This document shows, piece by piece, positions 978 to 41,449 of a stretch of DNA of 64,000 nt (positions are counted from its first letter, which is position 1; each line of letters begins with the position of its first letter). The DNA comes from Candidatus Nealsonbacteria bacterium (lineage in GTDB: Bacteria > Patescibacteriota > Minisyncoccia > Minisyncoccales > PWPS01), in contig PWEN01000033.1 of the NCBI GenBank assembly GCA_003553505.1, forward strand, positions 14,518 through 78,517. The letters are read 5' to 3'. The notes beneath the pieces are model-generated. The model saw only the letters and a list, made by a program, of their open reading frames with translations, had not been told where the DNA came from and did no database searches. A program made the position numbers and the translations under genes.

Positions 978-3900
978 ATGCTAAAAGAAAAAAAACGATC
1001 CACTTCCTTTTTACTACTAACTCTTGCACTTTTAATTGTTGCGGGAGGGGTGGGACTATTTCACCTTTTGAAAGATGAAGCAGAAGGAGAGTCTCGCGTT
1101 CACTACCCTACTCGCACAGAAGTCATTATTGAAGAAATAGAAGATCTGGTAGAAAACATAAAAAGAGGAGATGATGACGGAACAGCTTTTAGCGAAATAA
1201 TAGAGTCAATGGAGTCCGCAAACTGTGAAAACATGAACTCTATATGTGACACAGGAAATTGCGACCCCATGGAGGACGAGTTTCTTCCCGGAAGCTTTTG
1301 GGATGCAAAAGAAAAAGAGAAAGAGTTTATCGCTAAGCAAGAAGACATCAGAAAAAACAAGGAGCACTTCGCTTTTTTACAAAACATAATCAAAAAAGAG
1401 TTGGCACAAGAAGACGGAGGACTGCGAATGGAGCTTGAAAACATGAGAGAAGAAGGTCAAGAAGAGAAAGCTGACAGCATGGAAGAAGACTTGGAAGTTC
1501 TTCTTTTTATTATGGACCCCGAAGACGAAGAAACACAAGAAATAATAAGCGAGGAGTCTGTCACAAAAGGAGAACAAAGAATGGAGTCCTGGGGTATCGA
1601 TATGGGAATAATGGATATAATGGATAAATTTCTCTCCTTTGACTACTGGGGAGATGCCTGCATTTCTGCTTGTGAGACAGATTGGTGGTTTGAGTTTTGT
1701 GTAGGGCTACAAGTTGTACAAGAAAGCATAGATCTTATTTTCGAAATGGAGCTTGGTCTCGAAGACATGGAAATAGATCCCGTGGAAATAAGCAGTATTG
1801 ATCTCAATCTGCCCGGAGAAATAGACATTCCCGATCCAAAGCTATCTTTTGAGATCCCTATTCCCGATATAGGCGTAAGCTTTCCTCAAGCCACAATAGC
1901 AGAAGTGGGAGCAGGAGGTGCTTTAGATATGAGCATAAATCCCATAGAGCTTCCCTCCGTAAGAATACCTACTCCTATAAGAGAAAGAACTGAGCTTTGT
2001 CCTCAATATGAAAGCCCTGCTAGCGCGGGAAGCTTTGAAAGGCATGAAATGCAAGAAAGAATAGGCACAGTAGCTCTTGACTGGCACCTGCAGGTATACT
2101 CCTATCTTGCTCAAAGATGCATGGAGATTCCTTCCGCCGCCTTTACTAGAATGTACTGTCAAGACATTGAAGATGAAGGAGGAGTGGCAAGCGTTATAAG
2201 TGAGTGCGACACCAAGGATGCAGAAGACCTAGAAGAAGATTATGATTCAAGAAACATATGCTCTTTTGCCATCAGCGCAGACCATGTCTTCGATGCATGC
2301 AGAGACAATGAAGATGCAAAAGGATGTGATCGTGTACTGGACGCTCTTGCGGAAGGGAATGAAAAGTACGCTTGCACTGTTGCTCTTCAAGAAACATCTG
2401 TTGCTGGAGAAGGGTCTCCCACAGAAGGGACAATACTGCGTGAAATGACCATGGACGAAAGGTGCTTTGATCCTGACGAGCTGGTTCCAACAATCAACAA
2501 CACATGCGAATATATATGGAGCGAGTACAGTGAGACGTGGATGTTTACAGACATATTTCGTGAAATGGACAGAGTAGATCTGCTTTTTATTGACGATTAC
2601 GAGGAGTGGTACGACTTTTTTGAGTGGCTAGAAAATTATCCTCTCAACATCGGTCCCAGCTACTCTCAACTAGAGTGGGAAAAGGTGTTTTTTGATGTCT
2701 CCACAGGAACAATAACAAGCTACAAGAACAACTTCAGTACATGGAACAGCAACATAGAGTGGGTCGAAGTAAGAACAGAAGAAGAGTGCGAGACCGATGA
2801 GTATGGAAATGAACATTGTGAAGAGTTCTCGGTAGGATATTACGATCCATGGCACCCAGACCAGTACTCCAACTGGCGTGAAGCGCTAGAAGGCGAAGAG
2901 GGAGCTGTTCCGTTCGAAGCAAAACTTGAAAGCATATGGCACGAATTTCCAGATAGTGGAAGTGTTCAGACATGGGGAAGCTCTCTTCCCTCGGGGTCCG
3001 GGAGGCGCTACGAGTCAGGATACTCTTATAGGCAGTTCGACAAAGATATTCCCGGCTCAATAATAAGCGCGATAAACGAGTTTCTGAGCGAAGACATAGA
3101 AGACATGTTTGAGTTTGTTTTTGAAGAAGAGATCGGGATTTATGCAGACGACAAAACGTCCTGGGCTCTTTTCTTTGATTTTGTTGATGAAGATTTCGAT
3201 GAAGAAGATGAAGGATTTAATTTGGAGAAAATATGGGAAGAGCTTTTCGAGCTCATGGATGAAAGGCCTGACATCCGCGGCGGAATAGTAAGAGAAGATA
3301 AGTTCGGACAGTATGAGCTTCACAGGTTTCTTAAAGAAGAAGAGGTAAAAGAGGAAGACTTAACAGAAGAGTTTGAAGATTATACAGACATATATCCTCT
3401 TCCTCAAGAAATACTAGTACCCCCCAGAATATGTCAGGAAGTCGGAGTGATCGAGGAAGTGGAAGAAGAAATAGATATAGAGATAGATGAAAAATGGCAA
3501 GAACATCAGATGTACAACTACTATCTCATAGACTTCTTTGGAAACTACTTTATTCCTTTTGTAAACACCGCAGCGTTAAGCATGGACCTGGCAGACAAAT
3601 TTAGTGATCTTTACGATATCATTGACGACAAATATGAACGCCTATCTTTTGTAAACTCTTACGGAATATATAAGTTCCTGTCAGAGAATGAACTTATAAA
3701 TGAAAGCTTTGACAACCTTCCTGACTCCGCCGTAGAGTATGAAGACTATGATATTCCTGAAAGCGACTACGACATACCGGACAATTTTTATGAGTGTCGT
3801 GCAGAAGGAGGGTCCGAAGATGATTGCGAAGAATACGCCATACCGCACCAAGAATACATGGATGAATACTACAACGCAACAGGTGGTGTAGGCCATGAAG

Positions 3901-6900
3901 CTGACCAGGACGAGAGGATGTTTCACTTCATAGAAAATTACGAAAACTGGGAAGGGTATGCAGAATATCTTAATCTTTGGGATGATTATGTCGAAATACT
4001 AAAAGACATGGGTACTAGCGAGTTTGGTTTGTTCGATAGATACTCCAGCCATGCAGGCAATTGGAGTGAGTACGAAAAGTTTTTTGAATATTTAACAACA
4101 AGCAGTCCCGGAATCTTTGAAGAATACTCTGAATACGCAAACAACTGGAGTGACTACGAAGATTTTTTCCTCGAAGAGAACGAGGAGGGGGATGAAGAAA
4201 AAGGAGAGCTTTGGGATGCCTATGAAGATTTTATCGATGAAGATAAGGAGTATCCCGACAATCTTATCGAGTTCATAGTTACAGCAGAACAGTGGGAAAG
4301 CTTCCTGGTGTTCGTAGAAGAAGAGAACTTGATGGACGAAAACTACGACTTTCTCATAGATGAAAACAGATTAAGTGCATCTGAAGTGCAAGACATCGAA
4401 GATGATGCAGAAGAAAACCTACTCTCTATTATAGAGGATAGAGGGTACTTTCCTCTTTTTGAAAACTTTCTTGCAGAAAACAGCCACCTACTAAAAGATG
4501 TTCCCGAGTTTCTTATAGAAGAACAGTTAACGCCACAAGAGATGCAAGACGAAAACATAGATTCGGGAGATATGTTTAATCAGTTCGCCTATCTCATAAT
4601 AGGAGAAGATCCTCTCTACGAGTACTTAGAGTTCCTTTCCCGCCACGACATCTCTTCCTTGTCCAGGCTAAGCGGCTATGAAGAAGATGCGGAAGAGTGG
4701 CACATTGGGCCATTTGGAGAGCCATATCAAGAATCTCTTTTTGAGATATGGCAAGAAGAGGAACCGAGCGAGCCACCCATGGACATTCCACCCTACAAAA
4801 ATGAGATACCTTTTCTTCCTACTCCTGTTGATGTTTGCGACATAGTAGAAGATGAATATCCTCCAGGAGAACCAACTTGCCAAGAGGTGGTAGCTGTCCA
4901 GGAAGAATATGTAGAAATGATGATGGAGTATCTTAGAGTATACTGGCAAGAACAAATTGTGTTTGATGATAGATTAAATCAATTTGGTTTTTATGAGATA
5001 TGGGAAAAATTCTTAGAGTTTCTTAGCATAAACAAGCTTTGGGACGAATTTCTTGTCCAAGCAGAAGACGACTGGTATATAAGAAATTCTGGGCTAAACA
5101 GCTCTCTTCGATTTCTTGATGACCAGAGAGAGTTCGAAAATTTCGTAAACTACATGAAGAACCCTGATGCAGAGATATATCCTCGCACATATAGCATGAC
5201 AAGAGAAGACCTTCTTTGGCGCAAAGCCGGAATAGGAGGAGGATTTTATGGGTCCATGCACGGTTACTGGCATGCTTGGCACGGAGATTACTGGGACAGA
5301 ATATGGGTACAAGAAATACTAGACAACCCTCGTGCTCCCCGGCAACTTGAAACATTCTGGGAAGAAGATGAGCTCTGGTTTCGAATGTGGGAAGACTATG
5401 AAGCCGTACAGCCGTCTCCTATACACGATCCAAGCCTTCAACTAGAAGAAGATGCTGATATCGGAAATGTGCACCTTTTCGAGGCGTTTCATAAGACCGT
5501 AATAGACTACGGCATAAAAACAGATGAAGTATTTAATCTCGAGCTGGACGATGGCAAAAGCGAAAGTGTGATGGACATGACAAAAAAAGATTATCGCGCA
5601 CCAACTTACAAAACACACCTCATGAGAATGGAGGAAGGATACGAAGCACTAAGAGACAATCTTTCTTGGTGGGAATTTGGCCTAGATCCAAAATTGCGCA
5701 TAGCAGCAAAAGAAAGGTTTACAATAGATATGATGGACAAGCTAGTTCCGGCACGCAGCGAAGAAAAAGCAATAGCAAGAGCATGTACTGACCTCTATCT
5801 AAACAGAGGAGAAACCCCTCCCGCCTCTTGTGAAAACAGCCCCTTAAGCGCTTTAAGAAGCAAGTGTAAAGCGGTTCTTCACGAAGAAGAGGAAAGAGAT
5901 CCCGCTCTTCGCGTAAGAATGCCTCAGCCCTGCGCTATCCTTCCTCTTTTTGAAAACTATCTCGACGTTCTCGTAGACGAGTTTGATCCGAGTATAGGAG
6001 GTGGCATGGTCTCAAGAGGAGGAGGAGAGCTTACGGGATATCCTTCAGAAGGAAGCTTTACCGGCTGTGGCTCTGTCTCCGGAAGCGTTCCTGGAGCCCC
6101 AGAAATTCCGGAGATACCCGTAATTCCTCTTTCAGATTACAGTGTTGAAATACCAGACATTGAAACGCCTAATTTTGGATTATCAGGAATTCTGGAAGTA
6201 ACCCTCCCTGATGTAATCATAGAAGACCTTACTTTCCCGGACATAGAACTTTGCGATTTAAGTGACTGTCAGGACTTCTTAGACATCTTTCCTTCCATTA
6301 TAGAGTTGATACCTTCCTTGGAGAACATTTACATCCCCACCCCCGCGATAGTGCCCAATCCGCTAACTCTTGATAGCGCAACTGCGCAAGTGAGTGGACA
6401 CGGAGCCATAACAGTTCCTTTACCTGATGTTCACATAGGAGAAGTAAATCTTCCCTCTGTTCTCTTGGACATTCCACAGCTCCCGGAGATAACACCTATA
6501 TCTATATCTTCTCCCGAGTATGATCTTCCCAGCCTTGAAATACCAGAGCCATATGTAGAGTTTAACTGGGGAGGGTTCGATGTAGATGTTGGTTCTGCAA
6601 TTGTAGGAGCAATATTAAACTATTTTGGTTTTAGTGGCGGAAGTCTTTGCGCTAGCGCTGGCGGAGTAAACTTTCTTCCTTTAAGCATAGGGTTTGAAGA
6701 TTATCATGTTCAGTGGCCAGACTTTCCAAAGATACCCGAAATTCCTCTTTGTCGTAACGCGCGTCAGTTCTGCAGAGACGCTGCCAACAGCCTGCAAGAT
6801 GTCATCGATGAACTCGAAGAGATAATGAGAGAAGTAGAGGAAGAGATACAAGAGGCATTATCAATGCCCGCTGATGCAACAGCAAAGCTAGAAGACCTAA

Positions 6901-7328
6901 TAAACGAAGAAGTGCAAGACTTGGAGGATAGCGTGAACAATTACATTCAAAGCACGCACATAGAAGGAGAGCTTATAGGAGAAACGATAAGATTGGACTC
7001 TTACACTATACCAACAGAAGACATAGAAATAGACGTTTATCTTTCCGATTTAATAGAAGATATGCCAAGCAGCGTAGAGGTTTTGGACGAAGAAGACAGG
7101 ACGGTAGAGCTCACAAACCCCATTGAGATTGAAATGCCCACCATTCCACTTGACGACCTAAGCACTACCTGGGAATATATTGTCGAGCTTCCTGCACTTC
7201 AAGGAATAGATGGCGGTGCTGAATTTGATTGGGGAGAATGCGAGATAGGACCTGTAGAGTATGATGACGTCTATGACTGGGAGCCGTTCGAGCTAGAAGG
7301 AATAGAGATAGAAGTAGAAACTTTCTAG
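978..7328 (+). CDS. giant (2116 aa) hyper-acidic membrane-anchored protein, no recognised domain
   Basis: Uninterrupted 6.35-kb ORF. N-terminal Lys-rich stretch then hydrophobic helix (STSFLLLTLALLIVAGGVGLFHLL). Composition visibly dominated by Glu/Asp with many Trp/Tyr/Phe. Short (I/L)P(D/E) motif clusters near both ends. Gly-rich hydrophobic segment VGSAIVGAILNYFGFSGGSLCASAGGV near the C-terminus. Intrinsic terminator follows. Confidence 0.85.
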   Translation: MLKEKKRSTSFLLLTLALLIVAGGVGLFHLLKDEAEGESRVHYPTRTEVIIEEIEDLVENIKRGDDDGTAFSEIIESMESANCENMNSICDTGNCDPMEDEFLPGSFWDAKEKEKEFIAKQEDIRKNKEHFAFLQNIIKKELAQEDGGLRMELENMREEGQEEKADSMEEDLEVLLFIMDPEDEETQEIISEESVTKGEQRMESWGIDMGIMDIMDKFLSFDYWGDACISACETDWWFEFCVGLQVVQESIDLIFEMELGLEDMEIDPVEISSIDLNLPGEIDIPDPKLSFEIPIPDIGVSFPQATIAEVGAGGALDMSINPIELPSVRIPTPIRERTELCPQYESPASAGSFERHEMQERIGTVALDWHLQVYSYLAQRCMEIPSAAFTRMYCQDIEDEGGVASVISECDTKDAEDLEEDYDSRNICSFAISADHVFDACRDNEDAKGCDRVLDALAEGNEKYACTVALQETSVAGEGSPTEGTILREMTMDERCFDPDELVPTINNTCEYIWSEYSETWMFTDIFREMDRVDLLFIDDYEEWYDFFEWLENYPLNIGPSYSQLEWEKVFFDVSTGTITSYKNNFSTWNSNIEWVEVRTEEECETDEYGNEHCEEFSVGYYDPWHPDQYSNWREALEGEEGAVPFEAKLESIWHEFPDSGSVQTWGSSLPSGSGRRYESGYSYRQFDKDIPGSIISAINEFLSEDIEDMFEFVFEEEIGIYADDKTSWALFFDFVDEDFDEEDEGFNLEKIWEELFELMDERPDIRGGIVREDKFGQYELHRFLKEEEVKEEDLTEEFEDYTDIYPLPQEILVPPRICQEVGVIEEVEEEIDIEIDEKWQEHQMYNYYLIDFFGNYFIPFVNTAALSMDLADKFSDLYDIIDDKYERLSFVNSYGIYKFLSENELINESFDNLPDSAVEYEDYDIPESDYDIPDNFYECRAEGGSEDDCEEYAIPHQEYMDEYYNATGGVGHEADQDERMFHFIENYENWEGYAEYLNLWDDYVEILKDMGTSEFGLFDRYSSHAGNWSEYEKFFEYLTTSSPGIFEEYSEYANNWSDYEDFFLEENEEGDEEKGELWDAYEDFIDEDKEYPDNLIEFIVTAEQWESFLVFVEEENLMDENYDFLIDENRLSASEVQDIEDDAEENLLSIIEDRGYFPLFENFLAENSHLLKDVPEFLIEEQLTPQEMQDENIDSGDMFNQFAYLIIGEDPLYEYLEFLSRHDISSLSRLSGYEEDAEEWHIGPFGEPYQESLFEIWQEEEPSEPPMDIPPYKNEIPFLPTPVDVCDIVEDEYPPGEPTCQEVVAVQEEYVEMMMEYLRVYWQEQIVFDDRLNQFGFYEIWEKFLEFLSINKLWDEFLVQAEDDWYIRNSGLNSSLRFLDDQREFENFVNYMKNPDAEIYPRTYSMTREDLLWRKAGIGGGFYGSMHGYWHAWHGDYWDRIWVQEILDNPRAPRQLETFWEEDELWFRMWEDYEAVQPSPIHDPSLQLEEDADIGNVHLFEAFHKTVIDYGIKTDEVFNLELDDGKSESVMDMTKKDYRAPTYKTHLMRMEEGYEALRDNLSWWEFGLDPKLRIAAKERFTIDMMDKLVPARSEEKAIARACTDLYLNRGETPPASCENSPLSALRSKCKAVLHEEEERDPALRVRMPQPCAILPLFENYLDVLVDEFDPSIGGGMVSRGGGELTGYPSEGSFTGCGSVSGSVPGAPEIPEIPVIPLSDYSVEIPDIETPNFGLSGILEVTLPDVIIEDLTFPDIELCDLSDCQDFLDIFPSIIELIPSLENIYIPTPAIVPNPLTLDSATAQVSGHGAITVPLPDVHIGEVNLPSVLLDIPQLPEITPISISSPEYDLPSLEIPEPYVEFNWGGFDVDVGSAIVGAILNYFGFSGGSLCASAGGVNFLPLSIGFEDYHVQWPDFPKIPEIPLCRNARQFCRDAANSLQDVIDELEEIMREVEEEIQEALSMPADATAKLEDLINEEVQDLEDSVNNYIQSTHIEGELIGETIRLDSYTIPTEDIEIDVYLSDLIEDMPSSVEVLDEEDRTVELTNPIEIEMPTIPLDDLSTTWEYIVELPALQGIDGGAEFDWGECEIGPVEYDDVYDWEPFELEGIEIEVETF

Positions 7329-8217: not shown

Positions 8218-9537
8218 ATGATAATCTTTTCAAAAGTACTTGATTTGCAAAAAATGAAAAAAATCTCAACCAAAAAAATACTTTTTTTGCTTCTTGTTTT
8301 CTCTGTTTTTTTTGTTTTTGCAACAGAAATACACGCTGATGACGAAAGAGAACCGAGGCCTCTCGAGATTGAAGATTATCCTTTCGTTGACCCGGCCCCG
8401 GAAGAAACCGATCATGGAGTAGGAGAATATATCGCTTATATCTTCAATGCTGCCGTATTTCTGGTGGGGGGACTGTTGTTTGCATCTCTTATATATCACG
8501 GCGTGCTTTACATGCTCTCCTCGGGTGATCCGGGAAAGGCGGGCGCCGCAATAGGAGGAGTAAAGTCCGCTTTTGTAGGAGCAGTTATACTCGTTTTCTC
8601 TTACCTTATACTCCAAACAATAAACCCGGAGTTGCTTGATGTAGACCTTGAAGACCTAGACCCTATACAGCCAGAGCCCCTCCCTGCAGGACCTTATGTT
8701 TGTAACTTTCCTCTACCAAATGTAAATTCCATAGTTAGTGGGTACAGGGGCGGAGAAGAATCTAGGGCAGAGGCCATTCTAAGTCTTCACGAAAAGGTGA
8801 GAGAGGAGTCTTTAGATAATCCCGAAGCCAACTGTGAAATCGTAACCAGCACAAGAGAAACAATACTTGAAGGAGACGGGCTGGAGAACACATACTTTGT
8901 CATCCCTTCTATAAAAGAAGAAGGGTCAGTGCTAGAAATAGAACACGGGATAATATTTTTTGGAGACAAAAACGGACTGGAGAACGCCATGTCGCGAAGC
9001 GGATCAAGGTGTCAGATACAACTCGGAGGACCACAAGAAGACGAATATTTTCCCGATGGCATGGAGGTAGGGCCTCATAAAAACTTTAATCTATTGAATT
9101 GGAGAAACAGAGCTTACTCTCTGTCTCCTATAAAAATGTATGTTGATGCCGATGTTACTGCAGAAGTAACTTTTTACGAAGGACACGAATATAATCAACC
9201 TGTTGCTAAAAATGCAGATTTCGAGGGAGATGAGATGGAAGAGTGGACAAAGCAAATAACAAATGGCGAAGAAATAACGGTATTAGATCGTGGAGATTTC
9301 CAAGCAGAAGACTTTCATTGTCAGGACGGCTCTTGTGGAGTAAGGTCTATGCAAGTTGAGAACGCATTTGTTGTTTTTTACGACGACAGAGATTGTTACA
9401 TATTCACCTCAAATAAAAAATATCTTCAAGAGACACTTCCGTCATCAAGAGAAGGCTGGTTTGGAGCCACAGACAGAGGCTTTGACAGAAATACGGACTT
9501 TGATAATGTGCTGATAATAAAAGGAGAAATAAGATAA
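8218..9537 (+). CDS. TrbC/VirB2-like pilin domain fused to a ~300-aa C-terminal soluble domain
   Basis: Signal-like N-terminus (alternative start 8254, MKKISTKKILFLLLVFSVFFVFA). Two hydrophobic helices flank the SSGDPGKAGAAIGGVK loop, the same architecture as the three small pilins at 38.7-39.8 kb. A long Cys-containing C-terminal extension follows. Confidence 0.6.
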   Translation: MIIFSKVLDLQKMKKISTKKILFLLLVFSVFFVFATEIHADDEREPRPLEIEDYPFVDPAPEETDHGVGEYIAYIFNAAVFLVGGLLFASLIYHGVLYMLSSGDPGKAGAAIGGVKSAFVGAVILVFSYLILQTINPELLDVDLEDLDPIQPEPLPAGPYVCNFPLPNVNSIVSGYRGGEESRAEAILSLHEKVREESLDNPEANCEIVTSTRETILEGDGLENTYFVIPSIKEEGSVLEIEHGIIFFGDKNGLENAMSRSGSRCQIQLGGPQEDEYFPDGMEVGPHKNFNLLNWRNRAYSLSPIKMYVDADVTAEVTFYEGHEYNQPVAKNADFEGDEMEEWTKQITNGEEITVLDRGDFQAEDFHCQDGSCGVRSMQVENAFVVFYDDRDCYIFTSNKKYLQETLPSSREGWFGATDRGFDRNTDFDNVLIIKGEIR

Positions 9538-13451: not shown

Positions 13452-13560
13452 AAAAGCCTCCTTTCTTTCTTTACTTAGGCTGGTAAAATGTTTAAAGAGC
13501 AGTTTATTTATATCATTAATTTTCGATTTTGTAAAGTGTAGAATTTTGATAAAAAATTGT

Positions 13561-13588
13561 TTGATAACTTTTCTTGTTGTGCTAGAAT
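13561..13588 (+). promoter_or_regulatory. sigma70-type promoter TTGATA-16-TGcTAGAAT
   Basis: ttgata (13561-66), 16-nt spacer, tgctagaat (13580-88). The ATG at 13599 lies 10 nt after the -10, implying a near-leaderless mRNA. Confidence 0.55.
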
Positions 13589-13598
13589 GCAAAAAGGT

Positions 13599-14000
13599 AT
13601 GAAGTTTAAAGTGCCAAGACACATAGAGTACGAGTCCAAAATTGTTGCAGGAGTAACCTTCAAGCAGATGGCATATCTTGGAGTTGGAGGAATTTCTATA
13701 TTTTTCCTTTATTTCATCCTTCCTTTTATATTGTTTGTACTGGTTTCTATTCCCATAGCGGGAGCCTCGGCGGCTTTAGCCTTTGTTACCGTAGGAACGC
13801 AAACTCTTCCGGAATACCTAAAAAACTTTTTTTACTTTTCTACAACAACAAAAACATATCTTTGGAAGAAGAAAGACCTACCCCCTGTTCTTAAAACAAC
13901 AAAGAAAGAAGAGAAGGAAGAAAAAGAAGAAAAGGCCGACAAAAGACCAAAAGGAAAAAGCAAGCTTGATGATATGTCAACAAAAATAGAAACATCTTAA
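13599..14000 (+). CDS. PrgI/VirB3-like small T4SS membrane protein
   Basis: MKFKVPRHIEYESKIVAGVTFKQMAYLGVGG followed by two TM helices, then a Lys/Glu tail. Sits immediately upstream of the VirB4 ATPase genes. Start chosen downstream of the promoter. Confidence 0.55.
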   Translation: MKFKVPRHIEYESKIVAGVTFKQMAYLGVGGISIFFLYFILPFILFVLVSIPIAGASAALAFVTVGTQTLPEYLKNFFYFSTTTKTYLWKKKDLPPVLKTTKKEEKEEKEEKADKRPKGKSKLDDMSTKIETS

Positions 14001-14001
14001 T

Positions 14002-14634
14002 ATGGCAATAAAAAGCACACAAGATTTTTTGGAAGTAGATCAAATAAGGAACGGGGTTCTTATTCTTAAAAATAAAGGAATAAGAGGAATTTTAATGGTC
14101 TCCTCTATAAATCTTGCTCTAAAATCAGAAGAAGAACAGCGCTCTGTAATTTATGGATTTGAAGAGTTTTTAAACTCCCTTGATTTTGCTTGCCAGATTA
14201 TTGTGCAATCAAGAAAAACAAACATAACAGGATATATAGATAAAATAAAGGAGCTGGAAAAAAATCAAGAAAACGAGATGCTTAAACATCAAACCGCGGG
14301 ATATAGAGAATTTCTGGAACAGTTCATAAAAAGAGAATCTATACTAACAAAAAAGTTTTTTGTTGTTGTTCCTTACTCTATAGGAGAAGCAAAAAAAGGA
14401 CAAGGTGGAGAGAGCAAAAAGCCAGCAACCAATCTTACAGAAGAAAGATTTGAAAGAGCAAAAGTACAGCTTACACAAAGAATGGAATTTGTTGCCTTGG
14501 GGTTACGCAGGTGCGGACTACAATCCTCTCCTCTTACAACATCGGAGATTATGGAGCTTTTTTGGGGTCTTCACCATCCAAGAGAGGCAGAGAGGGGATA
14601 TTATCCGGAATTTCCTGAAGAGTTTATAAATTAA
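14002..14634 (+). CDS. hypothetical protein resembling the N-terminal region of Gram-positive-type VirB4 proteins
   Basis: STQDFLEVDQIRNGVLILKNKG...SSINLALKSEEEQRSVIYGFEEFLNSL pattern, recalled from VirB4/TcpF-type N-termini. 1-nt gap to prgI-like and 3-nt gap to virB4-like. Confidence 0.35.
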   Translation: MAIKSTQDFLEVDQIRNGVLILKNKGIRGILMVSSINLALKSEEEQRSVIYGFEEFLNSLDFACQIIVQSRKTNITGYIDKIKELEKNQENEMLKHQTAGYREFLEQFIKRESILTKKFFVVVPYSIGEAKKGQGGESKKPATNLTEERFERAKVQLTQRMEFVALGLRRCGLQSSPLTTSEIMELFWGLHHPREAERGYYPEFPEEFIN

Positions 14635-14637
14635 TAT

Positions 14638-16440
14638 ATGAACGAAATTTTAAATAAAATAAAAGAGTTTCTTAATTTAGGTCCTTCTGTTCAAAAAAAA
14701 GAAGAGAAGGATAATATTTTAAGTATAAGAGATATTATTGCTCCTTCTTATATTAAAGAAGAACAAGGAAACATAGAAATAGGAGAAAAACTCTCACGAT
14801 CCTTTTTTGTTTTCTCTTATCCTCACTATCTTTCAAGCGGATGGCTGTCTTCCGTTATAAATCTGAACGCCGTAATGGATATCTCTTTCTTTATCCACCC
14901 TATGGACACGATAACAATGCTTAAAAAGCTACGCCGGAAGCTCACGGACGTACAAGCAGAAATATCAGAAAACCAAGAAAAAGGGCTTGTAAGAGACCCT
15001 ACTCTGGAAACAGCATATCAGGATCTTGAAGAGTTGCGAGACAAGCTACAGTCCGCCTCAGAGAGAATGTTCTACTTTGGTCTTTATATAACCGTTTACG
15101 GAGAAACTCAAGAGGAGTTGTCCGACATGGAGAGTACTCTTCGGTCTATATTTGAATCAAGTGTTATATATATAAAACCGGCCTTCTTTCAACAAAGAGA
15201 AGGGTTTATAAGCACCTCTCCTTACGGAATAGATCTTTTAAATGTGCACACGTCCATGAACACAGAACCTCTTTCCAGTGTGTTTCCTTTTATATCGTTT
15301 GATCTTAGTTCAAACGACGGAATTCTTTATGGTATAAACCTTCACAATAGGTCTCTTGTTCTTTTTGATAGATTTTCTTTAGAGAATGCAAACTCGGTTG
15401 TTTTTGGAACCTCGGGAGCGGGAAAGTCTTATCTCGTGAAGCTTGATGTGCTTCGCTCTTTGATGGTGGGAGCAGATGTAATAATTATAGACCCCGACAA
15501 CGAATACGATATCCTTGCAAAATCAGTGGACGGATCTTTTTTTGATATATCTATAAGCTCTAATGATCGCATAAATCCTTTCGATATACCCACCCCAAGA
15601 GAGGGGGAAACGCCAGAAGAGGTAATAAGATCAAACACAATAAACCTTGTGGGTCTTTTGCGCATAATGCTTGGAGGGTTAACTCCGGAAGAAGATGCCA
15701 TAATAGACCAGGCAATAACGGAAACATACGCCGCAAAAGACATAACTCCGGACAGCGATCCCAATACCTGGGAAGAAAAGGTTCCTCTTTTGTCAGACCT
15801 AGAACAAATACTGGAGTCCATGGAAGGAACAGACTCTCTTATTACGCGACTCAGAAGGTTTACGCGAGGAACATACTCTAGCTTTTTTAATCGTTACTCT
15901 AATATATCAGTAAAAAACAGGCTTACAGTTTTTGGAATAAGAGGACTGGAAGACGAGTTGCGCCCAATGGCAATGTTTATAGTTATGCGCTATATATGGA
16001 AAACTATATGTAGTAGCATAAAAAAGCGCATACTTGTGGTAGACGAGGCCTGGGTAATGATGCAAAACGAGGACGGAGCATCCTTTCTGTTTGGACTTGT
16101 TAAAAGAGCGAGAAAATATTGGTTGGGAGTAACAACAATCACACAAGACGTATCAGACTTTATGAAGTCTCAATACGGAAAGCCAATCGTAACAAACTCC
16201 GCACTAAAAATACTTCTAAAACAATCTCCTTCTGTTATCGATGTTGTTCAAAAAACATTCAGCCTTACAGAACAAGAAAAATTCACTCTCTTGGAAGGAG
16301 AGGTGGGAGAAGGAATCTTCTTTGCTGGTCAAAAACATGTAGCGATAAAAATAACTGCCTCATACGCTGAGGATCAAATAATAACATCCTCGCCGGAAGA
16401 CTTGGCAAAAATAAAAAAAGCAAAAAAAGCTTCTCAATAA
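14638..16440 (+). CDS. VirB4/TrbE/PrgJ-family type IV secretion ATPase
   Basis: Walker A VFGTSGAGKSYLVK, Walker B RILVVDEAW, DIIAPSYI...GEKLSRSFFVFSYP N-domain pattern; 600 aa. Confidence 0.8.
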   Translation: MNEILNKIKEFLNLGPSVQKKEEKDNILSIRDIIAPSYIKEEQGNIEIGEKLSRSFFVFSYPHYLSSGWLSSVINLNAVMDISFFIHPMDTITMLKKLRRKLTDVQAEISENQEKGLVRDPTLETAYQDLEELRDKLQSASERMFYFGLYITVYGETQEELSDMESTLRSIFESSVIYIKPAFFQQREGFISTSPYGIDLLNVHTSMNTEPLSSVFPFISFDLSSNDGILYGINLHNRSLVLFDRFSLENANSVVFGTSGAGKSYLVKLDVLRSLMVGADVIIIDPDNEYDILAKSVDGSFFDISISSNDRINPFDIPTPREGETPEEVIRSNTINLVGLLRIMLGGLTPEEDAIIDQAITETYAAKDITPDSDPNTWEEKVPLLSDLEQILESMEGTDSLITRLRRFTRGTYSSFFNRYSNISVKNRLTVFGIRGLEDELRPMAMFIVMRYIWKTICSSIKKRILVVDEAWVMMQNEDGASFLFGLVKRARKYWLGVTTITQDVSDFMKSQYGKPIVTNSALKILLKQSPSVIDVVQKTFSLTEQEKFTLLEGEVGEGIFFAGQKHVAIKITASYAEDQIITSSPEDLAKIKKAKKASQ

Positions 16441-34721: not shown

Positions 34722-35393
34722 ATGAATATAGTTTGGTACGGACAATCGTGTTTTAAAATAACTCTACAGGGAAACAAGAAGTCCAAGCGGAAGGTGACCA
34801 TTCTCACGGACCCTTTTGAGGAGGAGATTGGCATAAAAATGCCTAAGACTGAGGCGGATATTGTTCTTATAAGTCACAATCATCATGACCATAGCAATAA
34901 AGGGTGTCTGAAGGGTGACCCGTTTATAATTGAAGGGCCTGGAGAATATGAAGTAAAGGATGTTTTTGTGAGAGGAGTGTTTTCTTTTCATGATGAAAGC
35001 GAAGGAAGTGAGCGTGGAGTGAACACTATTTACACTATGCTTGCGGAAGGGATAAACGTGTGCCATCTGGGAGACTTCGGGGAAAAAGAGCTTAGCAGCG
35101 AGCAGTTGGGAGAAATAGGAAGCGTTGATGTTCTTTTTGTTCCCGTGGGAGGAGTATATACTATTGACGCAAAAGGAGCGGCAAGAGTTGTTTCACAGAT
35201 AGAGCCGCGCATAGTTGTTCCCATGCACTACAGTGTCCCGGGTCTTAAGTTGCAGCTTGGAGGTCTTGCTGATTTCTTAAAAGTTATGGGAGAAAAACAA
35301 ACGGAAGAAGTAGAAAAGCTTTCCTTGCAAAAGAAAGACCTTTTAAAAGAAGACACGAAAATAACTCCTCTTTCTTTATCTTCAAAGAAGTAA
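34722..35393 (+). CDS. MBL-fold metallo-hydrolase
   Basis: ISHNHHDHSN (HxHxDH) motif; 223 aa. Confidence 0.85.
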   Translation: MNIVWYGQSCFKITLQGNKKSKRKVTILTDPFEEEIGIKMPKTEADIVLISHNHHDHSNKGCLKGDPFIIEGPGEYEVKDVFVRGVFSFHDESEGSERGVNTIYTMLAEGINVCHLGDFGEKELSSEQLGEIGSVDVLFVPVGGVYTIDAKGAARVVSQIEPRIVVPMHYSVPGLKLQLGGLADFLKVMGEKQTEEVEKLSLQKKDLLKEDTKITPLSLSSKK

Positions 35394-35394
35394 A

Positions 35395-35730
35395 ATGCTT
35401 CAGAAATTAAAAAATCTTCCGGAAAAAAGAAAGAAGATAATCATCTGGGGCGCTGCTGTAGTAATAGTCGCTCCCATTTTATTTTTTCAAGTGCAGGGCA
35501 CAAAAAATAAACTGGAAAACATAAGCTTTGAGTCTTCGCCTTTTTCTTCGCTTAGCCAGGAGATTAGTTTTGGCATGGACAATGTGCTGGAAGGAATGAA
35601 AGAAGAAGGGTTTTCTCTTGAAGAGATAGAGGAAGAGTTACGGGAGATAAAAGAAGAAGGAGATTTAACAAAAGAGGAGGAAGAAGAAATAGAAGAAATT
35701 TTAGAAGAAATTAAAAATGAAGAGCAGTAA
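35395..35730 (+). CDS. hypothetical membrane-anchored acidic protein
   Basis: N-terminal TM ([17 protein letters not shown]) then a Glu-rich tail; overlaps the gyrA start by 14 nt. Confidence 0.5.
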
Positions 35731-38176
35731 AAAAGAAACAAAAGGAACGGATATAGGGTACGTTAAGCCGCGCAGTATCACTGAAGAGATGCGCAGCTCT
35801 TATATAGATTACGCTATGTCGGTAATTGTAGGAAGAGCACTTCCTGATGTGCGTGACGGGCTAAAGCCAGTGCACCGAAGAATACTTTATGCAATGAAAG
35901 AGGATGGCGTGACGCATAATGCGAGATTTAAAAAGTCTGCCAGTGTGGTGGGAACAACCCTTGCACGCTACCATCCTCATGGAGATATGGCTGTTTATAA
36001 CTCTCTTGTGCGAATGGCGCAGGATTTTTCCATGCGCTATCCTCTTATTCAAGGACAAGGAAACTTTGGGTCTATTGACGGCGATCCTCCTAGTGCGATG
36101 AGGTACTCTGAGGCAAGACTTTCCAAGTTGGGAGAGTATATGCTTCAAGACATAGCAAAAGATACAGTTGATTTTATAGAAAACTATGATGGCACTAAAA
36201 AAGAACCAAAAGTGCTTCCATCTCCTGTGCCGCAGTTTCTTTTAAATGGATCTCTTGGCATAGCGGTTGGCATGGCCACAAGTGTTCCTCCTCACAACTT
36301 GTCAGAGGTAGTGGATGCCTGTGTGCACCTTATAGATAATCCTAATGCAGCAACAGAGGACCTGTTAGAGTTTGTAAAAGGACCTGATTTCCCCACAGGA
36401 GGAGAGATATACAACAAAGAAGACATAATTGCTGCTTACTCAAAAGGAAAAGGCTCCATAGTTGTACGTGGAAAAGCGGAGATAGAGGAAGAAAAAAACA
36501 AGAGTCGTATTGTAATAACAGAAATTCCTTTTGGAGTGAGAAAAGCAAAGATGGTGCAGAGCTTTGCGAACATGGTGCAAAAGAAGAAACTGGAAGGAGT
36601 AAAGGACATAAGAGACGAGTCTGACAGAGAAGGGTTGCGGGTAGTTCTTGACCTCAAAAAGGACGCCTATCCCAAAAAGATACTAAACAGACTGTACAAC
36701 TTCTCTTCACTGCAGGAGACATTTCACCTTAACATGCTTTCCCTTGTTGAAGGAATACAGCCTCAGGTTCTAAGTCTTGCGGAGATACTTTATAACTATC
36801 TAAATCACAGAGAAGAAGTTATAACAAGAAGAACGCGTTTTGATCTGGAGAAAGCAAAACAAAGAGCACATATATTAGAAGGGCTTCACAAGGCACTTTC
36901 TGATATAGATGAGGTTATAAAGACAATAAAAGGCTCTGAGAGTCGGGACAGTGCAAAGGCTAACCTTATAAAAAAGTTTAAATTTTCTGAAGTTCAAGCG
37001 GACGCTATTCTCGATATGCGTCTTCACAAGCTTGCACGTCTCGAAAGAGAAGAGATAGAAAAGGAGTTAAAGGAGAAGCTTGCGCTCATAAAAAAGCTCA
37101 CGGCAATACTAAAGAGCAAGAAAAAAATAAAAGATGTTGTAAAGAAGGAGTTGTTAGAAATGAAAGAGATGTTTGGCGACGAAAGGAGAACAAAAGTGTT
37201 TGACCACGGAGTGGGAAAGATAAGCGAGAGAGACCTTATTCCTCAAGAGGAAACGATAATCACCATAACACAAGGAGGATACATAAAGCGTATAAATCCC
37301 TCTATATACAAGGAACAAAAAAGAGGAGGAAAAGGGCTTTTGGGAATGAAGACGGGCCAAGAGGATGTCGTAGAGCACTTCATAGAAGCGATGACGCACG
37401 ACTTCCTTCTATTTTTCACAGACAGTGGAAAGGTTTTCCGTGTTCCGGTCTACCTTGTTCCCGAGGGAGCAAGAGCGACGCGTGGAAGAGGTCTTTTGAA
37501 CTTTTTGGAGATATCTTCTGATGAAAAGGTTCTTACAGTAATTCCACTAGAAAGAAAAGAAGAAACAACAGAGGAGAATCTGGTAATGCTCACAAAGAGT
37601 GGCATTGTAAAGAAAACGCCTCTTAAGGATTTTGACAATATACGCAGGTCTGGCCTTATAGCTATAACGTTGCGTGAGAATGATGAACTCTGTCGTGTAA
37701 ACAGGACTACGGGAAGTGACGAGATATTTATATCCACAAAGAAGGGACAAGTAATAAGGTTCAACGAAAAGGATGTGCGCACCATGGGCAGGCAGGCTAG
37801 TGGAGTAAAAGGAGTTGCTCTCAAAAAGGGAGATGGAGTGGCGGACATGACAGTAGTTGGCAATGATCTTGCCAAAAAAGGAGATATTCTTTTGATTACC
37901 GAGAACGGATACGGAAAGAGAGTAGGTGTCGGAAGTTATAAGTCTCAGAAGAGAGGAGGTGTGGGAGTAAAAACAATAAAGAACTGGGAAAAAGTAGGAG
38001 ATGTTATTTCCGTGAGAGTAATACTTGACAATGAAGATCTTATTGCTATATCTCGTAATGGGAAAGTGATAAGAACAAAACTGAATCTTATCCCTAAACA
38101 GTCCCGTATAACGCAAGGAGTAACAGTGATGAAGCTTGACAAGGGAGACAAACTTGCTTCAATAATATGTATATAG
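35717..38176 (+). CDS. gyrA: DNA gyrase subunit A
   Basis: [35 protein letters not shown]-terminal beta-pinwheel repeats; 819 aa. Confidence 0.97.
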
Positions 38177-38177
38177 T

Positions 38178-38690
38178 ATGGCATTCCTTAATCCTGAAAA
38201 AATAATTTCGCAGCTTTCTATAAAAAAAGGGATGAGTGTTGCCGATCTGGGATGTGGGTCTGGAGGATGGACGGTTCCTATTGCAAAAGAAGCGGAAGAT
38301 GGTCAGGTTTATGCCGTTGATATACTGGAAGAGTCTCTTTCTGCGCTAAAAAGTAAACTTCATTCGGAGAAAGTTCACAACGTGCGAGTTGTACGCGCGG
38401 ACCTAGAAAAAGGCTCTTCGTTGCGCGTTGAATCTGTCGATCTTGTGGTGGTGTCCAATGTTCTCTTTCAAGCGGAGAGAAAAGAAGATATAATAAAAGA
38501 AGCTTTCCGCATACTTCGCAAAAAAGGTGTTTTGCTGGTGGTTGACTGGATTCCGGAGGCGGAAAACGGGCCCGAGGGTCGCATTTCCCCGCAAGAAGCA
38601 AGAGAGATGGCGGAAAACAACGGGTTTGATTTTTTGGAAGAGCTTGATGCGGGAGCTTATCACTTTGCTCATGTTTACAAAAAAGATTAA
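38178..38690 (+). CDS. class I SAM-dependent methyltransferase
   Basis: VADLGCGSGGWT motif I; 170 aa. Confidence 0.8.
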   Translation: MAFLNPEKIISQLSIKKGMSVADLGCGSGGWTVPIAKEAEDGQVYAVDILEESLSALKSKLHSEKVHNVRVVRADLEKGSSLRVESVDLVVVSNVLFQAERKEDIIKEAFRILRKKGVLLVVDWIPEAENGPEGRISPQEAREMAENNGFDFLEELDAGAYHFAHVYKKD

Positions 38691-39000
38691 AACAGCATTA
38701 ATATTAACACTTATTCTTTTGCCCGGTTTTATAGTGGGAACGATAGACCCTCCCACTGCTCATGGCAGCTTTGCAGATCTTGCAGAGGGGCTCGTGAAGG
38801 ACTTTGCTATTCCGATAGCTATTGCCATAGCTCCTATTTTGTTTATTATTTCCGGATTTTATTATCTTACTGCGGGAGGAAATCCTGATAATGTAACTAA
38901 AGCAAAGAACATATTTATATGGACGGTTATTGGCCTTGTTGTAGTGTTCTTTGCGTGGAGCGTAACATCTTTATTAAAGGATATATTGGAAATACCATGA
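38671..39000 (+). CDS. TrbC/VirB2-like pilin paralog 1
   Basis: Signal peptide MFTKKIKTALILTLILLPGFIV...AHG. Helix - YYLTAGGNPDNVTKAKN loop - helix. An alternative ATG at 38647 is possible; the listed ORF start 38527 lies inside the methyltransferase gene. Confidence 0.65.
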   Translation: MFTKKIKTALILTLILLPGFIVGTIDPPTAHGSFADLAEGLVKDFAIPIAIAIAPILFIISGFYYLTAGGNPDNVTKAKNIFIWTVIGLVVVFFAWSVTSLLKDILEIP

Positions 39001-39314
39001 GAAAAATAATCTTACCAGCAGCTGTTTTGTTTCTTGTTTTGCCTTTTTGTGTTTTGGCAGACCCTCCTGATCTAGGAACTACGGATGATGTGATAGATGT
39101 AATTGAGAACATAAGAAACTTTTTGTATGCCATATTTGGGATATGTGTTACGATATGCTTTATCATAGCAGGGTTTTACTTTATAACAGCAGGAGGCGAT
39201 CCGGATAAAATAAAAACCGCTAAGAGTATGGTGAAGTACGGAATAATAGGCACAGCAATGGGTGTTGTCGCAGGAGGAATGGCAGAGCTCATAGGCGCAT
39301 TTTTAGGAGCATAG
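38997..39314 (+). CDS. TrbC/VirB2-like pilin paralog 2
   Basis: ATGA overlap with paralog 1. Signal peptide MRKIILPAAVLFLVLPFCVLA. FYFITAGGDPDKIKTAKSMVKYGIIG loop between two hydrophobic helices. Confidence 0.7.
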   Translation: MRKIILPAAVLFLVLPFCVLADPPDLGTTDDVIDVIENIRNFLYAIFGICVTICFIIAGFYFITAGGDPDKIKTAKSMVKYGIIGTAMGVVAGGMAELIGAFLGA

Positions 39315-39316
39315 TA

Positions 39317-39344
39317 TTGTCATGTATTTGCAAGGTGCTATAAT
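39317..39344 (+). promoter_or_regulatory. strong sigma70-type promoter TTGTCA-16-TGcTATAAT for pilin paralog 3
   Basis: ttgtca (39317-22), 16-nt spacer, tgctataat (39336-44); AAGGA Shine-Dalgarno before ATG 39399. Confidence 0.65.
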
Positions 39345-39398
39345 GTATTAAATAATGAAAAATAAAAGGTCGATAACAAACCAAAGGATGCGTGCAAA

Positions 39399-39755
39399 AT
39401 GAATAAAGTAAGTAAATTTATTTTGTTTTTTCTTGTTGCCACGATAGTAGCTGTGCCTGCTGGGGGTGCTCATGCTCTCTTTGATGACCCGGGAGAAGAA
39501 CCTCCTGAGCCCATTACAACACCTGGTGACATTGAGGAATTTTTAGAAGGAGTGATGAACTGGCTTTATCTGATAATCGGAATAATAGTGGTTATCATGC
39601 TTATTTTAGCCGGCTGGAACTTTATTACAGCAAGTGGTGATCAGGACAAAGTTAACAAAGGAAAGGACATGGTTAAGTACGCGCTTATAGGTGTGGCTGT
39701 AATGGTTGTCGCTGGAGGAGTGTTTACTCTTATCGAGGCGTTTTTCGGAGAGTAA
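39399..39755 (+). CDS. TrbC/VirB2-like pilin paralog 3
   Basis: Signal peptide ...AGGAHA. WNFITASGDQDKVNKGKDMVKYALIG loop between two hydrophobic helices. Confidence 0.7.
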   Translation: MNKVSKFILFFLVATIVAVPAGGAHALFDDPGEEPPEPITTPGDIEEFLEGVMNWLYLIIGIIVVIMLILAGWNFITASGDQDKVNKGKDMVKYALIGVAVMVVAGGVFTLIEAFFGE

Positions 39756-39780
39756 GGTTAAAGTTCTTACAAGAGATGCT

Positions 39781-39805
39781 AGCCCCGGAACTTGATTTCG
39801 GGGCT
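39781..39805 (+). terminator. hairpin after pilin 3 (putative terminator)
   Basis: agccccggaa-cttga-tttcggggct 10-bp stem; only a weak T-tract follows. Confidence 0.5.
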
Positions 39806-39827
39806 AATGTTTGCAATAATAAAAAAA

Positions 39828-39911
39828 GCCGAGGTGGCGAAACAGGCAACCGCGACAGGTTTAGGACCTGTTGCCCACAAGGGCTTGCGGGTTCGAATCC
39901 CGCCCTCGGCA
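39828..39911 (+). tRNA. tRNA-Leu(TAG), class II
   Basis: Acceptor GCCGAGG/CCTCGGC, anticodon stem ACAGG/CCTGT, loop TTTAGGA, long variable arm. Confidence 0.88.
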
Positions 39912-39919
39912 CAAAAGAA

Positions 39920-40336
39920 CTACAACTCTACTTTTCTCTTTTTCTCTTTTTCTATTTTTGGTATCTCAATAGTAGCAATACCGTCTTCTATGGATGCTTT
40001 TATGTTTGATGGATCCGTTTCTTCCGGAATTATTACTTCTCTTCTAAAACTTCCAAAGAAACACTCTTTTGTGTAGAACTGTTTTATATCTTCTTCTTTC
40101 GGTCTTTCTCTCTTTCCTTTTATTACCACCATGTCTTTCTCTGCTGTTATCTCCAGATCTTCTTTTTTAACTCCTCCCAAAGGAGCCTGAATCACTATGC
40201 TGTTTTCTGTCTCATAGACATCAACAACAAGCTCCCCTTCTTTTTTCATCCAAGACTTGTCCTTTTGGGTGTTGTTTTTTCCGCTTTCTTCTTCTATTTT
40301 TTCTGTTTCCCAGTTTTTCTTTTTTAGGAAAGGCAT
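39920..40336 (-). CDS. Hsp20/alpha-crystallin family small heat-shock protein
   Basis: GELVVDVYETENSIVIQAPLGGVKKEDLEI...FRREVIIPEETDPSNIKASIEDGIATIEIPK pattern. Confidence 0.88.
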   Translation of the reverse strand: MPFLKKKNWETEKIEEESGKNNTQKDKSWMKKEGELVVDVYETENSIVIQAPLGGVKKEDLEITAEKDMVVIKGKRERPKEEDIKQFYTKECFFGSFRREVIIPEETDPSNIKASIEDGIATIEIPKIEKEKKRKVEL

Positions 40337-40375
40337 ATTTTTAAACTTTATACTACTCCAATATTAGTGCAACGA

Positions 40376-41449
40376 TTATGTAAAGTCAATTTTTAAGTTG
40401 GGGTCTGCAAGTATTTCGCTATAATGCTTTTCTTTGCCAATAGCGATGGCCGTCGCTGCGATCATTTCTGCATTGTCAACAGAAAGAAAAGAAGAAGGAA
40501 TGACCGTGTCTTTTTCTATTTTCTCTCTTAATCTCTCGTTTGCAGTTACGCCTCCTCCCACTATTAAGCTTTTTGCTTTGCACTCTTTTCCTGCTTCTTT
40601 TAGTTTTTTGGCAAGGACGTCTGTTATTGCTTCCTCTATCTCTTTTGCCATGTCGCTGATGTATCGTGGGTCATCCGTTTTTTTGAAGTTATAAAGGACG
40701 GCTGTTTTCAGTCCCGAGAAGCTGAAATCGTAGTTCTTGCTGTGCATCATGGGGCGTGGAAGTCTTATATCATAAAGTCCTTCTGCTTTTTTTGCTTCTT
40801 TTGATATTTCCGGTCCTCCGGGATAAGGGAGACCGAGAATGCGTGCTGTTTTGTCGAAACACTCTCCTGCTGCATCATCTCTTGTTTTTCCCAGCGAGTG
40901 AAATTCATCAATGGAGTTTAGTAGTATAAGCTCTGTGTGTCCTCCGCTGGCCACAAGGGCAACGGCGGGAAACTCTATCTTTTTCTTTTGCAAAAGAAAG
41001 GAAAGAGCGTGGGCTTTTATGTGGTTTACCGGAATGACGGGAATATTATATGCACATGATAAAACCTTGGCAAAGTTTACTCCCGCCCACAAGCAAGGGT
41101 CCAGTCCCGGCCCGACAGTTACGGCAATAGCCTCTATTTTTGCTTTTTTGTGTTCTGAGAGGAATTTTTCTGTTTCGAAAAGAAGATGGTCTTCGCGTTG
41201 CATTATCTCTTTTGCTTTCTTGCATGAAACGCCTTTTCCTTTTTCAAGGAGGCCCGCTTTTTTTAGCGCTTCTTTTGTGACGGGCACAAGATTTCTTTGA
41301 TGTTCGCGCCTTGCAAGAGAAGGATAAACTCCTCCCCACTCTCTGTGAACTTCTATTTGAGAAGATATTACTCCTGACAGAGTGTGCATATCTTTTGTGA
41401 CAACTGCAGCGCAAGTATCATCACAAGATGTTTCAATTCCTAGTATCAT
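40376..41449 (-). CDS. tsaD: tRNA N6-adenosine threonylcarbamoyltransferase TsaD
   Basis: MILGIETSCDDT start, metal-binding NHIKAH, ASGGHTEL. Confidence 0.93.
   Translation of the reverse strand: MILGIETSCDDTCAAVVTKDMHTLSGVISSQIEVHREWGGVYPSLARREHQRNLVPVTKEALKKAGLLEKGKGVSCKKAKEIMQREDHLLFETEKFLSEHKKAKIEAIAVTVGPGLDPCLWAGVNFAKVLSCAYNIPVIPVNHIKAHALSFLLQKKKIEFPAVALVASGGHTELILLNSIDEFHSLGKTRDDAAGECFDKTARILGLPYPGGPEISKEAKKAEGLYDIRLPRPMMHSKNYDFSFSGLKTAVLYNFKKTDDPRYISDMAKEIEEAITDVLAKKLKEAGKECKAKSLIVGGGVTANERLREKIEKDTVIPSSFLSVDNAEMIAATAIAIGKEKHYSEILADPNLKIDFT

Follow-up and report, generated by a model that had tools for sequence, protein, structure and literature searches.

We analysed 64,000 nucleotides (nt) of Candidatus Nealsonbacteria bacterium (assembly GCA_003553505.1, contig PWEN01000033.1, positions 14,518 to 78,517 of the forward strand); this stretch, the window, is part of a 94-kb contig in an 810-kb draft genome that is 68% complete. 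It carries three tandem genes, pil1, pil2 and pil3, which an earlier reading of the letters (the original prediction) took to be paralogues of the VirB2/TrbC-type pilins of type IV secretion systems (T4SSs). In window coordinates, pil1 (38671–39000, 109 amino acids [aa]) encodes a type-A VirB2-like pilin of the position-1 clade, pil2 (38997–39314, 105 aa) a type-B pilin of the position-2 clade, and pil3 (39399–39755, 118 aa) a type-B pilin of the position-3 clade with a long acidic mature N-terminus. Upstream lie gyrA (35717–38176, + strand), a clear gyrase A sequence that anchors the conserved block described below, and, between gyrA and the pilins, the gene for a class I S-adenosylmethionine-dependent methyltransferase of 170 aa (38178–38690, + strand), which matches Methyltransf_31, Methyltransf_11 and Methyltransf_25; an NCBIfam profile search gave no specific equivalog for it. 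The listing of open reading frames (ORFs) and the raw sequence confirm three ORFs of 105–118 aa, all on the same (+) strand, with pil1 starting 20 nt inside the methyltransferase gene and pil2 on the ATGA that ends pil1.

Each of the three proteins has the hydropathy profile that had been described, a signal-like N-terminal hydrophobic segment and two longer hydrophobic stretches with a short polar loop between them. The loops of pil1, pil2 and pil3 read TAGGNPDNVTKAK, TAGGDPDKIKTAK and TASGDQDKVNKGK, respectively; the loop pattern given in the original prediction fits all three except at one position in pil2 (K-I-K-T-A-K). The predicted mature N-termini are acidic, as claimed, that of pil3 most so. 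Signal-peptide cleavage of the pil1 product is most likely at IVG/TIDPP, between G and T, as judged from its orthologues; on that evidence a cut at AHG/S, before S, was set aside. Mutual identity among the three proteins is 26–50%.

Profile searches place all three in the T4SS_pilin family of Pfam. PF18895 scores are 46.7, 38.9 and 40.5 bits for pil1, pil2 and pil3, above the gathering cut-off of 26.6 bits; with the TrbC/VirB2 family PF04956 (cut-off 27.9 bits), pil2 scores 29.5 bits and passes, pil1 scores 24.7 bits and falls below, and pil3 has no match. The assignment as VirB2/TrbC-like pilins therefore stands, since each protein shows similarity to a T4SS pilin profile. All three also match the Mbov_0395 family (NCBIfam NF045849) over about 60–70 residues, with E-values of 8e-9 to 1e-5 and scores of 25–35 bits, below its 40-bit cut-off. 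A homologue search with pil3 gave two proteins, and the alignment for fold prediction was built instead from loci fetched via gyrA (22 related sequences). The resulting AlphaFold2 model of pil3 (predicted local distance difference test, pLDDT, 83) has a helix at residues 3–27, a disordered acidic stretch at 28–41 and a helical hairpin at 42–76/82–117.

The array belongs to a block that is conserved well beyond this genome. Order-level synteny was read from 20 pilin arrays, and the class-level sample held 79 genomes from about 70 families. All 20 order arrays lie in the same gyrA–methyltransferase–pilin block, with hsp20 downstream in most loci. Across the class, 64 of 79 genomes have a pilin array on the same strand no more than 3.7 kb downstream of gyrA, and conservation of the methyltransferase after gyrA extends to most of the class. 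The typical arrangement at that level runs from gyrA through the methyltransferase and a membrane-anchored solute-binding protein (SBP_bac_1) to the pilins: the SBP_bac_1 protein (about 430 aa) is encoded between methyltransferase and pilins in 57 of 80 class-level loci, about 0.9–2.2 kb after gyrA, and its gene is missing at the locus throughout the window's order. The methyltransferase is detectable by BLAST in 17 of the 20 order loci, with no match in the other three nor in several pilin-bearing loci of the class-level sample.

Within this block the pilins fall into two deep types, as seen in a maximum-likelihood tree of 52 pilins over about 100 columns: type A is the first gene and type B comprises the later genes, and this A-then-B layout is kept across the class. 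In relatives the mature N-terminus of type A is conserved, reading I-x-N-P-L...F-x-E-L, and that of type B is variable and acidic. In the window's family type B is duplicated, with positions 2 and 3 forming separate clades. Position labels cluster far better on the tree than do shuffled labels (0 of 200 shuffles as low), best BLAST hits track gene position in almost every family locus, and across 11 family genomes the copies group by position and not by genome, which is not the pattern of a variation cassette. Same-genus orthologues are 40–54% identical as compared with 82% for gyrA, while gene order is kept, so that the pilins evolve fast yet hold a stable order. Along the protein, the loop and the helix ends next to it are the most conserved parts; the signal peptide, the mature N-terminus and the C-terminal end are the least. 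Most of the family loci fetched hold three pilin genes, and the window contains no recent duplicates. Individual loci depart from this: L026 has a recent duplicate of the first pilin gene; L021 has one pilin detected by BLAST and one candidate that BLAST did not detect; and in L013 (4914–5498, minus strand) the first pilin ORF is a truncated pilin module fused in frame to a complete one, a partial tandem duplication.

The original prediction had divided the array between two modes of expression, with pil1 and pil2 coupled to the upstream genes and pil3 transcribed on its own. Comparison with relatives supports this division. The methyltransferase–pil1 overlap recurs: by our reading, it measures 14 nt in eight relatives of the family when counted from the conserved MKK start, and is ATGA in two other families. 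The gap between pil1 and pil2 is always small, from −11 to 28 nt, and every relative has a spacer of 60–145 nt in front of pil3. In the window this spacer holds a sigma-70-type promoter-like site (39317–39344, + strand), TTGTCA-16-TATAAT with a TG extension. As had been noted, the site is close to consensus: it agrees with the consensus at 11 positions out of 12 and outscores every other site on either strand in the 5.1 kb from 35300 to 40400. Boxes resembling −35 and −10 elements, of the TTGAC(C/T) type, are present in the same spacer in nine of 10 family relatives. The leader that follows is unstructured (−1.7 kcal/mol) and contains a conserved octamer, discussed below. A four-codon mini-ORF, ATG CGT GCA AAA TGA (39388–39402), overlaps the pil3 start codon, probably by chance.

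The predicted hairpin 3′ of pil3 is real: a GC-rich stem–loop at 39774–39812 on the + strand, with an 11-bp core stem at 39780–39806 (ΔG −23.7, z −3.8). It is clearly homologous to the hairpin of a same-genus relative and corresponds to the intrinsic terminators of relatives; a GC-rich stem–loop follows the last pilin gene in 16 of 16 relatives, in most of them with an evident U tract. A tRNA-Leu lies at 39828, after the hairpin, and is all that an Rfam scan of 39250–39950 returned. The Shine–Dalgarno (SD) sequence claimed for pil3 is a weak candidate, the AAGGA that stands 11 nt before the ATG not being conserved and the same position being plainly A-rich in relatives. SD-like 4-mers are hardly enriched, preceding 22% of genes in this genome as compared with 19% in a control window. 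The 16S rRNAs of one same-family relative (L123, G008:C12, 3′ end at locus position 3007) and of one same-order relative (L124, G028:C10) end without the CCUCC anti-SD, their tails reading GGAACAAUUAACUU and GGAUCACUACAUUU, respectively; the 16S gene of the window's own genome is not in the draft assembly. About half of Parcubacteria are reported to have lost the anti-SD (PMC9297842). The predicted promoter, conserved leader and terminator-type hairpin of pil3 fit a separately expressed, probably major, subunit; judged from these signals, the gene is a compact unit that is probably expressed apart from its neighbours and probably strongly, an arrangement that is common for major subunits.

The leader octamer AAAGGTCG (39366–39373, + strand) stands 26 nt upstream of the pil3 start codon. 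All 20 order arrays, and one more distant Paceibacterota locus, have it in the corresponding leader. It always precedes a type-B pilin gene (21 of 21), usually the one that comes right after type A; with at most one mismatch it is found in 25 of 64 class-level arrays. The fetched loci, 502 kb in total, contain 52 exact copies, about 37 of them in pilin leaders. In the window's own genome, 15 of 37 copies stand 12–60 nt before an ATG that opens an ORF, as against a mean of 2.5 for 60 permuted octamers, and the genes behind them include groES, an hsp20-like gene, a response regulator, a KH-domain protein and several small membrane or secreted proteins. Copies elsewhere are on own-genome contigs C1, C9, C12, C16, C29, C67, C68 (position 84138) and C69 and in fetched loci L011–L030, L036, L044–L117 and L123 (position 4330). 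In leaders the octamer is in the sense orientation, 12–74 nt before start codons and downstream of promoter-like boxes.

No sequence is conserved outside the octamer and there is no preferred distance to −10-like hexamers, which points to a transcript-borne element, or to a simple site for a protein, and not to a promoter core; a −10 element or a discriminator at fixed promoter distance was rejected on the same grounds. At 12–74 nt from the ATG the octamer is too far away to be a true SD. Pairing with 16S rRNA is not supported either, CGACCTTT being absent from the 16S of the two relatives. A 7-nt complement of the octamer occurs at about position 1300 in both; this region is base-paired in the 16S structure, so that the complement is unlikely to be available. 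A sigma-28-like −10 is not supported, the resemblance being only a loose one. In the same-family relative G008 a near copy of the octamer, GAAGGTCGA, is found 7 nt downstream of the 3′ limit of the match to the 16S rRNA model. Rfam holds no family for the octamer region, and we found no paper that names the octamer together with Patescibacteria. One tentative reading, which we hold to be more doubtful than not by a wide measure, is that AAAGGTCG serves throughout the class Paceibacteria as a cis element marking a set of strongly expressed genes (those for the probable major pilin, GroES and small surface proteins, and the hsp20-like gene), perhaps acting at the RNA level as an SD-independent ribosome-loading, stabilizing or processing signal. 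In that case the array would stand for a heteromeric A/B pilus, conserved and under an expression switch of its own. The octamer is in any case a possible entry point to gene expression in a lineage where SD pairing may be missing.

The core of a T4SS lies in the same window. A PrgI/VirB3-like gene (13557–14000, Pfam PrgI) is followed by a TrsD-like gene (14002–14634, 210 aa) and a VirB4-like ATPase gene (14638–16440, 600 aa, identified with Pfam and NCBIfam), all on the + strand. Across these genes Pfam gives P-loop_TraG and AAA_10 matches, and NCBIfam gives matches to TrsD and the VirB4 N-terminus. VirB4 function appears to be split (14002–16440), the N-terminal part of VirB4 models being matched by the TrsD-like protein and the ATPase coming directly after it; TrsD homologues are listed among the widespread T4SS components of Patescibacteria in a published survey (PMC12102498). 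The genes after the ATPase are yidC, rnpA, dnaA (18602) and dnaN. Inside the T4SS cluster, the 439-aa protein encoded at 8218–9537 (+ strand) carries an N-terminal T4SS_pilin domain (PF18895, 36.4 bits, residues 69–134), as the original prediction had inferred from its loop. The genome holds six PF18895 domains, all on the window's contig, where four had been counted. The two additional proteins are encoded upstream on the contig: a 123-aa Cys-rich pilin (C68:164–535) and a protein of 1005 aa with an N-terminal pilin domain (C68:12472–15489), the C-terminal part of which corresponds to window positions 1–972. A 2116-aa ORF at 978–7328, 3′ of the latter, has no Pfam match.

In an order-level sample of 41 relatives, mostly draft assemblies, PF18895 is present in 41 of 41 genomes, usually with three to 10 matches per genome, and VirB4 was found in 37 of 41. 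Co-occurrence in relatives and a VirB4-type T4SS in the same genome support the functional linkage that had been proposed; together with the family profiles and the T4SS core in the window, they are in line with the idea of a multi-pilin repertoire for a T4SS-like machine. The description of the array as remote from VirB4 and VirB6 is correct in that 22 kb separate it from virB4; it needs qualifying, however, since one dnaA-proximal stretch of 45 kb contains the two loci, and the pilin locus forms a conserved block of its own.

We believe it probable, though well short of certain, that pil1, pil2 and pil3 encode non-redundant VirB2-like (PF18895) subunits of a chromosomal monoderm-type T4SS near the replication origin, with pil3 as the major and pil1 and pil2 as low-copy subunits of a pilus that they would form together. 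Each pilin would be exported via Sec and cut by signal peptidase, and the mature protein would be kept in the membrane as a two-helix hairpin until used by the VirB4-driven machine; the type-B N-terminus is probably surface-exposed. pil1 and pil2 would be read through from the gyrA–methyltransferase transcript and translationally coupled, at a lower level. pil3 would be transcribed from its own strong promoter with an SD-less, unstructured leader containing AAAGGTCG, and its transcript would end at the terminator-type hairpin, making its product the most abundant subunit and the other two its low-copy partners.

Several observations weigh against this interpretation. The sequences in the PDB hold no matching pilin chain, a profile search giving chance hits only, and a Foldseek comparison of the pil3 model with the PDB was not significant (best E-value 1.8), the method resolving simple helical hairpins poorly. 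This outcome neither favours nor disfavours a VirB2 fold; the link to VirB2 rests on profiles and topology because no solved pilin matched structurally. To our knowledge, no filament of PF18895 proteins has been seen or solved. The pil3 promoter is a consensus match only, and the hairpin in the window has no clean U tract, its tract being degraded. Being short, the proteins give moderate support to the clades of positions 2 and 3 (88/68 and 88/51). Finally, the array is linked to gyrA and the methyltransferase and not to virB4.

The divergence among the copies could also mean that the array is a variation repertoire, in which interchangeable pilins are amplified and diversified to suit a range of hosts or escape recognition, a role proposed for the VirB2 arrays of Bartonella and Anaplasma and suggested for Patescibacteria (PMC12102498). 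The low identity of the paralogues, the rapid divergence of same-genus orthologues as compared with gyrA and the concentration of change in the signal peptide, mature N-terminus and C-terminal end would all suit such a role. Nevertheless, the family retains gene order and positional orthology throughout, which speaks against a fast-turnover variation cassette, and the A-then-B layout is kept across the class; the window has no recent duplicates and the family no sign of copy-number flux (L026 and L021 excepted), and the distinct regulatory layout of pil3 is conserved. We consider such a repertoire unlikely. The stable, ordered two-type set, with one copy wired separately, favours instead a heteromeric or major/minor design.

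It is quite improbable, in our judgement, that the proteins are not filament subunits at all but small membrane parts of the secretion channel, or serve some other envelope function tied to the block of gyrA, methyltransferase and, in most of the class, the membrane-anchored SBP_bac_1 protein. Monoderm T4SSs are generally without pili (PMC12857230, PMC10633639), solved pilins give no structural match and the conserved neighbours are those of the block; against this stand the similarity to TrbC/VirB2 profiles and the fusion of PF18895 domains to large extracellular proteins inside the T4SS cluster, and the pilins remain where the solute-binding gene is absent (throughout the window's order) and where the methyltransferase has no BLAST match (three of 20 order loci and several class-level loci). 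The conserved overlap of methyltransferase and pil1 (14–20 nt in the family, ATGA in two other families), and the lack of a specific assigned family for the enzyme, could suggest by analogy with the N-methylation of type IV pilins that the methyltransferase modifies the pilins. Such a role is very improbable because the two are separated by the solute-binding gene in most of the class and some arrays have no detectable methyltransferase; in addition, the enzyme has no signal peptide and we know of no such modification of VirB2-type pilins.

The comparison shows the small pilins of Paceibacteria to be a stable, ordered two-type set whose housekeeping neighbours are fixed and in which one copy is set up to be expressed separately and probably at a high level; the pil3 unit points to the gene to study first among the three. 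In fimbrial operons such as pap, the message for the major pilin is more abundant and stable than the rest. The pilin locus resembles them in having one subunit gene with strong expression signals of its own and a hairpin at the 3′ end, the others being at a lower level on a longer transcript; it differs in that the protein families and assembly machines are unrelated and in that expression here is only predicted.

With the TrbC/VirB2 pilins of diderm T4SSs (PF04956), the three proteins share a signal peptide, two hydrophobic helices, a short charged loop and about 70–90 mature residues. In contrast, only pil2 scores above the cut-off for that family, neither sequence nor Foldseek searches match solved pilins, the host is monoderm and the genes lie outside the T4SS operon. 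Mbov_0395, a pilin-like conjugal transfer protein from the integrative and conjugative elements of mycoplasmas (NF045849), belongs like the VirB4 lineage of Patescibacteria to a monoderm system of the mating-pair formation (MPF) type MPF-FATA. Scores below the cut-off indicate distant homology only; since the Mbov_0395 system is monoderm, the matches fit the published MPF-FATA ancestry of the Patescibacteria T4SS.

The closest likeness is to the arrays already described in Patescibacteria. A series of predicted pilins was reported in the essential T4SS cluster of Southlakia epibionticum ML1 (Wang et al., 2023, PMC10633639). This is the only Patescibacterium to have been studied by genetics, and its epibiotic life requires the T4SS and the pilins. 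A survey of 3,035 genomes with PF18895 and PF04956 found 441 arrays of two to 11 pilin genes in 383 assemblies, with a mean identity within arrays of 25% and a maximum of 54% (Quinonero-Coronel et al., 2025, PMC12102498), and a 2025 review repeats these findings. Tandem arrays of diverged VirB2-like pilins in Patescibacteria are thus already published, and the locus adds no new kind of system. It shares with the published arrays (PMC12102498, PMC10633639) the family, the tandem layout and the low identity between copies, having at least two adjacent PF18895/TrbC genes of low mutual identity, as well as a chromosomal monoderm-type T4SS near dnaA with KsgA and RnpA as neighbours (PMC12102498). 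It differs in its position, 22 kb from virB4 and inside the gyrA–methyltransferase block, which goes unmentioned in both papers. Neither gyrA nor gyrase is mentioned in PMC12102498, and the class-wide gyrA-linked pilin locus is a modest addition to the published arrays, from which the array described here is further set apart by the positional orthology of its genes and by the conserved separate expression unit of the last of them.

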